From IMG/VR virus record IMGVR_UViG_2695420871_000006: a DNA stretch of 30,728 bases; one strand, written 5' to 3'. Each line of letters starts with the position of its first letter. The stretch's first letter is position 1. This DNA is from a virus (taxonomy: Duplodnaviria > Heunggongvirae > Uroviricota > Caudoviricetes). The notes under the pieces are model-generated. The model was not told where the DNA came from. It saw only the letters and a program-made list of their open reading frames with translations, and did no database searches. This document shows, one piece after another, positions 11,496 to 16,034 of the stretch. The position numbers and the translations under genes were made by a program.

Positions 11496-13539
11496 AGTTC
11501 CCTCCGTTCCAGACGTTCACATCCAGGCCATGCTGTGCGGTATCATCCACATCAATACTGCGCGCCCGCCAGCCTTCAGGGGCCACAAGCTCCACCCGTG
11601 CGGCGGTTTTCGCGGTGGCCTGTCCGCCGTTTTCGTCACTGCTGCCACGCAGTTTCTGCCAGGCCTGCGTCAGCCAGCCCCCCAGATAATCACCGAGATA
11701 GCTGCCCACCGTGGAACCAATGGCAACCCCGACCGGACCGGCAGCCGCCCCCAGCGCGCCACCGGCGATACTTCCGGCAAGAGAACCCACGGCACCGGCT
11801 TTATCGGCTGCACTGGCGCTGCTGTCCAGCAGTACAGGAGCCGCCATGGCACCGGCCCACAGGGCACCACCACCCAGCCGACCGGCACCACGGAACAGCC
11901 CGGCAAAACGCCCCAGCCCCATGCGGTTTCCGGCCGCCGTTAGCAGACCACCGGCACGGCTCATCATACGACCGAAGAAGCCCTGTTTACCGGCACTCTC
12001 CGCCAGTTGCTCACCGGCAGTCACGACGGTCGTGACACCCCGTCCACGTCCGGGGCCGCGTTTTTTACGGCCGCGCACGGTTTTGCCGTCACCGCTGACC
12101 ACCACATCCCCGCCACCTGAGGCCAGGCCACCCGCAGGCCAGTTGGTGACCAGCACGGGCTGAACGGCAGCCGGATTTACCCCGGTAAGGAAATTCAGGA
12201 ACCGGCCAGCGCGTCCGGGCTGCGTTCCCGGTACAGTGGTCTGCGGTTTGCGGAAGGGCGACGTCAGCACGGAGGTCATCGCCATGCCATAGCGTAAGGG
12301 GGTTGCGCCGAGACGTAATGCCCCCGTCCCCGCAAACCTGAGCACCTTCAGCGCACGGGAGGCGAGATACATATACATCAGGTACTTTGCGGCGGTCTGC
12401 GCACCCTGACCAATACGATCCAGTGCATCGCCATAACCGGCGTCGCGCAGTGCCTGAAGCGTTTCCCTGACTTTCTGAATGGCCCGGTAAAAGCCGGTTG
12501 CAGCGTCTCTGGCATACTCGAATCCCTGATTCAGGGCTGAGGCCGTCTGTGTGGCCAGCTTATCCTGTAAGCCGCTTTTCTGTGCCGCATCAGCATAATC
12601 CAGAAAGCCTTTCAGGCTCTTTTTCAGGCTGTCAAACGGTCCCTTTGCCATCACCTCGCGGGCAAATCCGTCCCAGACATCGCCCATCATGGACGTCATT
12701 CCCGTCCAGGAATTCATGGCGTTTTTCTGGGCACCTTTTGCCTGTTCGGCCATCACCTGAAATAACAGGCGAATGCTGTCCGGTCCCAGTTTTCCTTTCT
12801 CGCCTTTCTCACGGATGATCTTCTGGTTTACACCCAGCTTATCGGCCAGCAACTGGTAAACGTTAATCCCGTATCCGGTCAGAATATTGGCGTCCGCTGC
12901 CTGGATACTCTGGCGGGCAAACATCTGTTTGAGTTGCAGGGACGCACCCTGTGCATCTGACAGTGACCAGCCGTGATAGCCGCCCTGATCCTGAAGCATG
13001 GTAATAAAGCGACGGGCTTCCCTGTCACTCATACCGAACCCGCGACTGGAGGCGTATTCCTGCATAACCCCCGCCAGCCCCCAGGTGGTGTCTTTGGCGT
13101 TCTGTACCGCCCAGGCTTTCACTGCTTCCGTTTTTGCCGTATCGCCATGATTAATGGCGTTGAGACGCAGAATATAGTTCTCCATCTCTGCGGCCGGGCG
13201 GATAAAGGCTTTATTAAACCCGTAGACCGCAGCCCCTCCCGCCAGCATCCCGTAAAGGTTGCTTATCCGCCCGATGGTGCCGGTAATGCTGCCCTGAAGG
13301 CGGTCAAAATCTGACGTCACCGTGCGGATACTGCCACGAACACCGGCAAGCGTTCGCTGCATACGGGAGCCGACAAGTTCTGTCTCCTGACCGGCACGAC
13401 GTGCTGCATTTCCAAGACCACCCAGCCCCGTCCTGCCGGAACGGGAGAATGCCCCCAGCTCCTGTGACCACTGGCGGGATTTGGCAGAAATATTGCCGAG
13501 TAAATCGACAATCAGGGAGGCTTTCAGGTTTTTTGCCAT
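11482..13539 (-). CDS. Tail tape measure protein
   Basis: 685 aa, Gly/Ala-rich C-terminal half, downstream of tube and chaperone genes. Confidence 0.85.
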   Translation of the reverse strand: MAKNLKASLIVDLLGNISAKSRQWSQELGAFSRSGRTGLGGLGNAARRAGQETELVGSRMQRTLAGVRGSIRTVTSDFDRLQGSITGTIGRISNLYGMLAGGAAVYGFNKAFIRPAAEMENYILRLNAINHGDTAKTEAVKAWAVQNAKDTTWGLAGVMQEYASSRGFGMSDREARRFITMLQDQGGYHGWSLSDAQGASLQLKQMFARQSIQAADANILTGYGINVYQLLADKLGVNQKIIREKGEKGKLGPDSIRLLFQVMAEQAKGAQKNAMNSWTGMTSMMGDVWDGFAREVMAKGPFDSLKKSLKGFLDYADAAQKSGLQDKLATQTASALNQGFEYARDAATGFYRAIQKVRETLQALRDAGYGDALDRIGQGAQTAAKYLMYMYLASRALKVLRFAGTGALRLGATPLRYGMAMTSVLTSPFRKPQTTVPGTQPGRAGRFLNFLTGVNPAAVQPVLVTNWPAGGLASGGGDVVVSGDGKTVRGRKKRGPGRGRGVTTVVTAGEQLAESAGKQGFFGRMMSRAGGLLTAAGNRMGLGRFAGLFRGAGRLGGGALWAGAMAAPVLLDSSASAADKAGAVGSLAGSIAGGALGAAAGPVGVAIGSTVGSYLGDYLGGWLTQAWQKLRGSSDENGGQATAKTAARVELVAPEGWRARSIDVDDTAQHGLDVNVWNGGNYGLY

Positions 13540-13542
13540 GGG

Positions 13543-13737
13543 TTACTGCTTCGTTCTGAGAATTTTTTCGGTCTGTCGGCAGTGCCGGTAAAGCTGCGAT
13601 AAGGGGAGGTTAAGCGCCCACTCCGGGCCGCTTTTTGTCACCATCCCCAGCACAATTGCGGCTTCTTCAATCTGATCCCGGCACTGCATCTGTTCGCCCC
13701 CGTTCAACGACCAGCTTTCCGGCCATCGCCGAGTCAA
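13543..13737 (-). CDS. +1-frame ORF filling the gap between chaperone stop and tape measure start: candidate frameshift extension of the chaperone, or an independent 48-aa gene from the internal ATG
   Basis: Overlaps the 3' end of the chaperone in the +1 frame and ends 3 nt before the tape measure ATG. An internal ATG is preceded by GGGGG. Confidence 0.4.
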   Translation of the reverse strand: MTRRWPESWSLNGGEQMQCRDQIEEAAIVLGMVTKSGPEWALNLPLSQLYRHCRQTEKILRTKQ

Positions 13738-14531: not shown

Positions 14532-16034
14532 TCACAAAATGAAACGGATCTGCGCGGCCATGAAGCGGAACTGGTTAACCAGATCCGGTGTACACATCAC
14601 ATCCAGACGGTTACGGTCTTTTGTGTTGCGCTCCACGAGCAGATTCTTTTTAAAGGTGTCCAGATTTTCGACCAGTCCCAGCTCCACCCATTCTTCACCC
14701 AGCGAAATTAACTGAAGTTTCATGATCTCCGGTGTCACGATATTCTGACCTGCACGAACAGGCGTCCCGTCATCAGCCAGTTTATGGCGCGGAAAACGTT
14801 GCGTGATAAAGGTGCGCAGGGAATAACGCAGATATGACAGGGTGTAGATGGTTTCCACATCCAGATAGCTGGGATCGCTTTCGCCGTATGCATTCTGACG
14901 GTACATCGTCACCTGACGTTCAATCTGCACCATGTCAGCGGCCGCGACGGTCACCGTGGACATGCCGGTATAAAGCAGGCTGTTTCGCTCTTCCCGCGTC
15001 AGACGAGCCGGTGCTTCAGGTGCCATACGGGCAGGCAGCGCCAGTGTCTGTAATGGTCGGGCCGGATCCGTTGACAGGGAGGGCGCACAGACCGCACAAA
15101 TGGAGGCCGCCCAGACATAATCCGGCTCTGGTGCTTTAGGAATAGAAGTGCAGGTAAACAGGAAGTCATTACGGGATTCACCAAAACTGGTTGCCGTACC
15201 GAAGGTGCCGGTATGCGCCATCCAGACCATACCGTCCGACATTTTTACCGGTCCCCAGCGTTTCAGCAGTTCATCCGCCAGAATTTTGAGATTTGCCGCA
15301 TCCTTATAGGGCATGACGATGTAGTTGTACTGACGATTCCCCATCCCTGAGACGCTACGGGTGATATCGGGGTTTGTTGCCTTCTGTGTTGGCGCGACGA
15401 GCTCCAGCGTAAGACCGGCCGGTGTAGTTTCACCGTCATAATAGTTCACCCGTAAATCATGAGCTGAGCATTCACCGATAAAGCGGGCGTTAACCCCCAT
15501 GCTGCCTTTAAGTCCTTCAGCATTATCACCACTGACTTCAGCTGCGATAGCAGTGAATGGCGCATCAGTGTCAGCGTTAATGACCTTAGCCAGCTCTTCC
15601 ACAAGCTCTTTACCTTTTTTCCCCTTACTGACGGGCAGGAGGTAACGGCGACCGCCGATGTAAACACTTAACACCCCGTCTGCCAATGCTGTTCCAATGA
15701 TATTCATCACGCATGCCCTGGACTGACCTGTTCCAGCCCCCTGTGCAATGGCATATAACTCTGTGTCAGGGTTAATGGCGATAAATTCCTCTACCATCAG
15801 TGCAATCATGGAACCTCGCCCCCAGAGTTCTCTTGCTTGTGAAGCTCGGGTAATACGTACTGGTACATCAAGCTGACCGCGCCCCTGAATGGTGGTGTCT
15901 TTCATTGCAGCCTGACCAAACAACAGTACCGCCTGACGCTGTGGTGGAGTGCCGGTCACGGCCATTGAATTATTGATTTCAATCTGTACCAGCGGAATGC
16001 GATTGTTATCGCCGATATAATCAAAGTTAATCAT
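14532..16034 (-). CDS. Contractile tail sheath protein (Mu L-like)
   Basis: 500 aa; synteny; ATGA overlap with the upstream gene. Confidence 0.85.
   Translation of the reverse strand: MINFDYIGDNNRIPLVQIEINNSMAVTGTPPQRQAVLLFGQAAMKDTTIQGRGQLDVPVRITRASQARELWGRGSMIALMVEEFIAINPDTELYAIAQGAGTGQSRACVMNIIGTALADGVLSVYIGGRRYLLPVSKGKKGKELVEELAKVINADTDAPFTAIAAEVSGDNAEGLKGSMGVNARFIGECSAHDLRVNYYDGETTPAGLTLELVAPTQKATNPDITRSVSGMGNRQYNYIVMPYKDAANLKILADELLKRWGPVKMSDGMVWMAHTGTFGTATSFGESRNDFLFTCTSIPKAPEPDYVWAASICAVCAPSLSTDPARPLQTLALPARMAPEAPARLTREERNSLLYTGMSTVTVAAADMVQIERQVTMYRQNAYGESDPSYLDVETIYTLSYLRYSLRTFITQRFPRHKLADDGTPVRAGQNIVTPEIMKLQLISLGEEWVELGLVENLDTFKKNLLVERNTKDRNRLDVMCTPDLVNQFRFMAAQIRFIL

Follow-up and report, generated by a model that had tools for sequence, protein, structure and literature searches.

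The stretch of viral DNA analysed here, 30,728 nt in length and hereafter called the window, raises the question of what is encoded between the tail assembly chaperone gene and the tape measure gene of its tail module. The stop codon of the first and the ATG of the second are separated by a gap of 127 nt (13666-13540), and all features of the window described below lie on the minus strand. The initial annotation had observed that an open reading frame in the +1 frame of the chaperone fills this gap and ends 3 nt before the tape measure gene, and our analysis confirmed its coordinates.

The tail genes were identified by their Pfam matches and by comparison with a collinear relative in RefSeq. 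The tail sheath gene (16034-14532, Pfam Phage_sheath_1) was followed by the tail tube gene (14523-14158, Pfam Tail_tube PF10618 and the RefSeq relative), located directly upstream of the chaperone. The zero-frame chaperone ORF encodes 158 residues (14143-13667, from the ORF list and Pfam) and is closed by a TGA at 13669-13667. The tape measure gene starts with the ATG at 13539 and encodes 685 residues (13539-11482, Pfam TMP_3 and the collinear relative). The order in the direction of transcription is sheath, tube, chaperone and tape measure, both by Pfam and in the RefSeq relative, with the chaperone flanked by the tube and tape measure genes in a module for a contractile tail.

The chaperone is a homologue of Mu gp41, with 49.6% identity in tblastn. 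It matched PF23746 (Gp41_Mu) with an E-value of 3.3e-32 and 111 bits, against a cut-off of 27, and also phrog_508, labelled 'tail assembly chaperone'. The match to Phage_TAC_7, the P2 E family, was weak (24.1 bits against a Pfam cut-off of 25). The late region of the RefSeq relative is Mu-like. It encodes Mor, a lysozyme, a DUF935 protein, which we take to belong to the Mu gp29 portal family, and a gpT-family major head protein. It also contains sheath, tube, 'phage tail assembly protein', tape measure, DNA circularization protein and baseplate genes, and an invertase-type recombinase and Com are also present. A prophage of E. coli STEC299 is 99% identical to the window region, and similar prophages were found in 73 of 5426 complete E. 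coli genomes. In the STEC299 prophage (locus L039, 20482-20569, plus strand), a 'tRNA-OTHER' is annotated by RefSeq, flanked by the virion morphogenesis and minor head genes; an ARAGORN scan of the whole window detected no tRNA.

The overlapping ORF (13737-13543) lies in the +1 frame of the chaperone, which is equivalent to the −2 frame, as (14143-13737) mod 3 = 1. It overlaps the 3′ end of the chaperone by 71 nt, or by 77 nt when counted from the upstream stop. Its TAA (13545-13543) is followed by CCC and then by the tape measure ATG. In the −1 frame, a TGA occurs just upstream of a run of G (13706-13704), and a second TGA at 13640-13638. A −1 shift at the G-run would add only about 20 residues and would terminate 98 nt ahead of the tape measure gene. 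The arrangement of the canonical −1 chaperones, an X XXY YYZ heptamer with an extension in the −1 frame, was not found at this locus, and the earlier exclusion of a −1 mechanism held. We must also note that alternative-frame ORFs of at least 60 residues are common in this GC-rich DNA. Within the window alone, the overlap is not beyond chance, and its significance comes entirely from comparative data.

Near its 3′ end, the chaperone ORF reads CGG (13702-13700), GGG (13699-13697) and CGA (13696-13694), encoding R148, G149 and R150. These codons (13702-13694) form the predicted slip site and contain, in phase, the octamer GG GGG CGA (13701-13694), identical in sequence and phase to the site of Mu. 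The window reads GAA CGG GGG CGA ACA at this point and Mu reads GAA CGG GGG CGA GTG. The 12 nt GAACGGGGGCGA are invariant in the window, Mu and D108, the proteins being approximately 50% identical and the surrounding alignment 73%. The codons [C/A]GG GGG CGA are rare ones. For the residues R-G-R, codon usage in the tail genes of the window, where CGA makes up 4.7% of the arginine codons, gives NGG GGG CGA a probability of ~ 0.0015; therefore, the protein sequence does not explain the conservation of the nucleotides.

The octamer GGGGGCGA occurred twice in the window, compared with 1.83 occurrences expected. The second copy (15816-15823, minus strand) lies within the sheath gene in the same codon phase, as TGG GGG CGA, and a −2 shift there would reach a stop after three codons (EVP*). 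We rejected it as a slip site, as neither the sheath gene of Mu nor that of the close relative in E. coli STEC299 contains it, and two copies in the window agree with the chance expectation; it is probably incidental. A full-text literature search with the octamer string returned only irrelevant primer and sequence matches.

The −2 frameshift of Mu was reportedly shown experimentally by Xu, Hendrix & Duda in 2004. In the updated Mu record AF083977.1, the joined CDS Mu_56 is described as 'verified −2 translational frameshift in PMID 15469818; tail assembly chaperone frameshift product'. According to PMC3458567, ribosomes at the Mu site, GG GGG CGA, undergo tandem −2 slippage, in which tRNA-Arg in the A site (anticodon ICG) pairs more favourably after a −2 than after a −1 move. 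The review PMC5009743 lists Mu among the few known −2 cases. The initial annotation had suggested that a +1 or −2 frameshift might extend the chaperone, and the Gp41_Mu family membership, the exact Mu slip site and the conserved frame all support that suggestion. The frame was right. The slip site and the minus strand had been left unstated, and what is a textbook case had been treated as open.

The extension in the −2/+1 frame (13695-13543) comprises 50 codons, from GAA at 13695-13693 through CAG at 13548-13546, followed by the TAA, and has the sequence EQMQCRDQIEEAAIVLGMVTKSGPEWALNLPLSQLYRHCRQTEKILRTKQ. Its assignment comes from homology with Mu and from phrog_12783. BLASTP aligned it with the Mu extension at 53% identity (24 of 45 residues, E 3e-21), and the match to phrog_12783, a label that carries no function, had an E-value of 4.9e-36. 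The differences from Mu fell at codon positions 1, 2 and 3 of this frame in the numbers 15, 10 and 23, and those from Kluyvera in the numbers 14, 9 and 23. An LPL..L motif was recognisable in the extensions of distant clades. The extension matched no Pfam or NCBIfam family, and the fusion had no relative in the PDB at E ≤ 1.

The comparison with Mu and its relatives, which the initial annotation had recommended, showed that the overlapping frame is conserved as a protein in Mu-like phages and prophages. We compared eight phage loci, namely the window, Mu, D108, Pasteurella Pmp9, Alteromonadaceae B23, Vibrio 1.028.O, Shewanella MuM16-2 and Vibrio martha, among which the identity of the chaperone falls to 33%. 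All eight carry the octamer in the same phase. In each of them, no stop interrupts the +1/−2 frame between the site and a point −17 to +14 nt from the tape measure start, and early closure of the −1 frame was seen in all. A scan of one genome per species with a four-sequence alignment (A3) returned 27 loci, spanning Enterobacterales, Pasteurellaceae, Vibrio and Desulfobacterota. Together with Klebsiella phage Kp4866-3, these gave 28 loci, of which 19 had the exact octamer in phase and three had GG GGG CGC, the remainder being variants or damaged copies. Among 80 IMG/VR loci, CGG GGG CGA was in phase in 71, AAG GGG CGA was present in eight, and one was an in-frame fusion with only four G. Throughout the compared loci, the extension was 43-51 residues long. 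The codon preceding GGG was CGG or AGG in nearly all loci, and both are minority arginine codons.

Several variants of the site deserve description. The three loci with CGG GGG CGC (L016, L024 and L035) come from Desulfosarcina and Desulfatiglandales MAGs; their extension is conserved, and CGC is read by the same tRNA-Arg(ICG). A clade with AAG GGG CGA was formed by Citrobacter braakii (locus L012, about 1931-1939) and the eight IMG/VR loci L066-L070 and L072-L074. Its members are 63-77% identical to the window chaperone and have a conserved +1/−2 extension of 51 residues. One of the two upstream G used in −2 re-pairing is missing in this clade, which may shift less efficiently or in the +1 direction. 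In Kluyvera genomosp. 3 YDC799 (L013), Erwinia tracheiphila ICMP 5845 (L015) and one IMG/VR locus (L100), the site contains four G rather than five, and the chaperone and extension are fused in frame 0 as a +1-type product. In the Kluyvera locus, a second, downstream run of five G is also one G short, which suggests homopolymer sequencing errors at the G4 loci rather than real fusion-only alleles. In a Smithella sp. MAG (L036, about 1835-1851), the chaperone ends with AAG CGG GGG GGA TGA. There, a stop soon closes the +1 frame, whereas the −1 frame continues to the end of the truncated contig; this locus may be a −1 variant on a run of seven G in the same protein family.

Taken as a whole, the locus very probably encodes a pair of tail assembly chaperones of a Mu-like prophage, the expression of which depends on programmed −2 ribosomal frameshifting. 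In this reading, most ribosomes would read the chaperone ORF to its TGA, and the zero-frame protein of 158 residues is expected to be the major product. In a minority, tRNA-Gly would occupy GGG (13699-13697) in the P site, with the poorly decoded CGA (13696-13694) held by tRNA-Arg(ICG) in the A site, and these ribosomes would slip two bases back, to GGG and GGC. Reading would resume at GAA (13695-13693) and continue for 50 residues to the TAA located 3 nt before the tape measure ATG. The predicted fusion (14143-13543) has 200 residues and was constructed by analogy with Mu_56 (UIW09302.1). Its residues 1-150, common with the chaperone, would be read in frame 0 (14143-13694), and 50 more from 13695-13546 after the backward slip of 2 nt, so that R150 would be kept and the protein would end with ...VVERGR-EQMQCRDQIEEAAIVLGMVTKSGPEWALNLPLSQLYRHCRQTEKILRTKQ. 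The corresponding junction would be ...ERGR-EQMQ, with the predicted peptides ...VVERGREQMQCR... and ...LVVERGREQMQCR. Both the production of a fusion and the −2 direction are presumed from the example of Mu. We infer how efficient the shift is and what the two parts do: on the model of lambda gpG/gpGT, the part common to both proteins would form a coat on the tape measure protein, and the extension would bring in tube subunits in a low, constant proportion that depends on how often ribosomes shift.

We also looked for elements that could stimulate the shift. RNAalifold found no pairs in a consensus of the downstream RNA of 17 relatives, and the downstream folds were no more stable than those of shuffled sequence in the window (z = 0.07) or in Mu (z = 0.05). 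Upstream, complementarity to the 3′ end of 16S rRNA (GGAG/GAGG) was observed 14-17 nt before the octamer in roughly half of a set of 21 loci, and in several clades, the relatives with this match including L007, L009, L010, L011, L016, L018, L023, L025, L027 and L034. In the relatives, the anti-Shine-Dalgarno (anti-SD) peak had a mean duplex energy of approximately −5 kcal/mol, against a background of about −1 kcal/mol, and lay at a fixed distance. The match was absent in Mu and weak in the window (−4.1 kcal/mol). Such a match may promote the −2 shift in certain lineages, or it may follow from constraint on the coding sequence. Given the lack of downstream structure and the weak anti-SD match of the window, the signal there appears to be the octamer itself, that is, a Shine-Dalgarno-like G-run followed by the poorly decoded CGA, a mechanism that we infer.

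The same fusion frame could be reached by a +1 shift, in which the P-site tRNA-Gly moves from GGG to GGC as the slowly decoded CGA waits in the A site. The predicted product is a fusion of 199 residues without R150, with the junction ...ERG-EQMQ and the peptide ...LVVERGEQMQCR. The frame is identical to that of a −2 shift, and the rarity of CGA in the tail genes fits a pause of this kind. Likewise, Citrobacter braakii and its eight IMG/VR counterparts keep the extension with one upstream G fewer, and the G4 loci of Erwinia, Kluyvera and IMG/VR encode the +1-type fusion in frame. Nevertheless, the site of Mu is identical, is recorded as a verified −2 site, and is described in PMC3458567 as a case of tandem −2 slippage. 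A +1 shift would also leave the near-constant CGG or AGG before GGG unexplained, despite both being minority arginine codons; the constant GG at this position is needed for −2 re-pairing and not for a +1 shift. For the prophage in the window, the example of Mu and the conservation of the codons point to −2, and we consider a +1 shift unlikely.

A different question is whether ribosomes also start within the extension. It contains an in-frame ATG (13689-13687), located 7 nt past the GGGGG at 13701-13697, which is a possible start of a peptide of 48 residues. This codon recurs in separate clades (that of the window, Pasteurellaceae, Brenneria/Serratia and phage B23). In view of this recurrence, we retain, as a rather improbable addition to frameshifting, some independent initiation in the window lineage, with the run of five G serving both as the −2 slip site and as the Shine-Dalgarno sequence for the ATG at 13689. 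If this were true, the locus would yield three products, the chaperone, the fusion and a free 48-residue 'T-domain' peptide, and the last could tune the recruitment of the tube.

In its full form, the proposal is that the downstream ORF is an independent gene, started at the ATG at 13689 with GGGGG as its Shine-Dalgarno sequence and expressed as a free protein of 48 residues, alone or beside frameshifting. The spacing of 7 nt is plausible for this purpose, the hypothetical protein WP_001149937.1, annotated by RefSeq in some E. coli genomes, M3 among them, is exactly this ORF, D108 has an annotated gp41.5 starting from CTG, and the ORF family exists as the standalone phrog_12783. However, the position of the ATG is occupied by CTG in Mu and D108, where no canonical start of the +1 ORF occurs until codon 27, and by GCG in E. 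coli prophages that are 87% identical over this segment and keep the octamer. In the 71 IMG/VR loci with the site, the codon was ATG in 25, CTG in 23, GCG in 12, TTG in eight and ATA in three. Neither start codon nor ribosome binding site is thus conserved: a start codon is present in the window and absent in Mu, D108, the 87%-identical prophages and 38 of the 71 IMG/VR loci. Moreover, the slip octamer is invariant, and the conserved part of the extension begins upstream of the ATG, with [ED]-x as its first two codons. An independent gene therefore seems quite improbable, and initiation at the internal ATG, the fallback of the initial annotation, was not supported as a conserved route.

Slippage of RNA polymerase on the run of five G, by loss of one G or gain of two, would fuse the two frames in a subset of the mRNAs. 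The change of frame would be identical, and the genomic G4 variants do encode an in-frame fusion. Yet the run is short, and transcriptional slippage in bacteria needs longer homopolymer runs, typically of at least seven A or T (reviewed in PMC5009743). Such slippage would also leave the conserved CGA codon unexplained, and the case of Mu is recorded as translational; we judge it very improbable. Finally, it is extremely improbable that the 127 nt of the gap encode nothing and that the overlapping ORF is open by chance because the DNA is rich in GC: similar-length ORFs in alternative frames are many in the window and the octamer occurs there at chance frequency, but the protein-level conservation with Mu (E 3e-21), the bias of substitutions towards third codon positions, the constant length of the extension and its end at the tape measure start in more than 100 loci, and a gap in which neither promoter nor terminator was found all speak against it.

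Programmed −2 frameshifting, the preferred reading, has consequences for annotation, and the main value of the present result is an annotation fix for the fusion product. That product is annotated in none of the RefSeq E. coli relatives examined. We compared the records of the STEC299 prophage (L001/L039), E. coli M3 (L002), loci L041-L043 and D108 (L005), and in most relatives' RefSeq records the gap is left empty. Other records contain either the 48-residue hypothetical protein (WP_001149937.1, E. coli M3) or gp41.5 (D108). Among the records compared, a joined frameshift CDS was present only in the updated Mu record AF083977.1. The older RefSeq record of Mu and that of D108 lack it, and gp41.5 of D108 is annotated separately. 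The rare −2 signal GG GGG CGA is fixed across Mu-like tails from Enterobacterales to Desulfobacterota, and hence offers a reliable annotation rule.

Of the known systems, gp41/Mu_56 of phage Mu is the closest. The window carries a further case of the known Mu-type −2 frameshifted chaperone, with no new biology beyond the 2004 work on Mu. Both chaperones belong to Gp41_Mu and lie in the same order of sheath, tube, chaperone and tape measure genes. Both have the slip site GAA CGG GGG CGA in the same phase, and both continue into a +1/−2-frame extension, of 50 residues in the window and 53% identical to that of Mu, which ends just before the tape measure start. The two systems differ in that gp41 has 144 residues, compared with 158 in the window chaperone, which has a longer N-terminus, the proteins being approximately 50% identical. 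The zero-frame tail past the site is six codons long in Mu and eight in the window. Mu is without the in-frame ATG found two codons past the window slip site, and its extension stops 14 nt from the tape measure ATG, compared with 3 nt in the window. The frameshift of Mu is verified according to its record, whereas the window prophage is known here from its sequence.

The P2 pair gpE/gpE+E′ (Phage_TAC_7) is likewise a contractile-tail chaperone pair encoded between the tube and tape measure genes. In P2, a −1 shift occurs on a T-rich site, and the −1 frame is closed in the window. A more distant parallel is provided by gpG/gpGT of lambda, a phage with a siphovirus tail, in contrast to the contractile tail of the window, and no sequence similarity between gpG/gpGT and the window chaperone was detected. 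Lambda uses a −1 shift at G GGA AAG, whereas the window has the −2 site GG GGG CGA and a closed −1 frame. In PMC5009743, the shared part is reported to bind the tape measure protein and the extension to bind the tail tube protein. In both systems, the DNA just ahead of the tape measure gene encodes two proteins that have their N-terminal part in common. The longer of them would arise by a low-frequency programmed frameshift near the 3′ end, and the roles of the two proteins are presumably the same.
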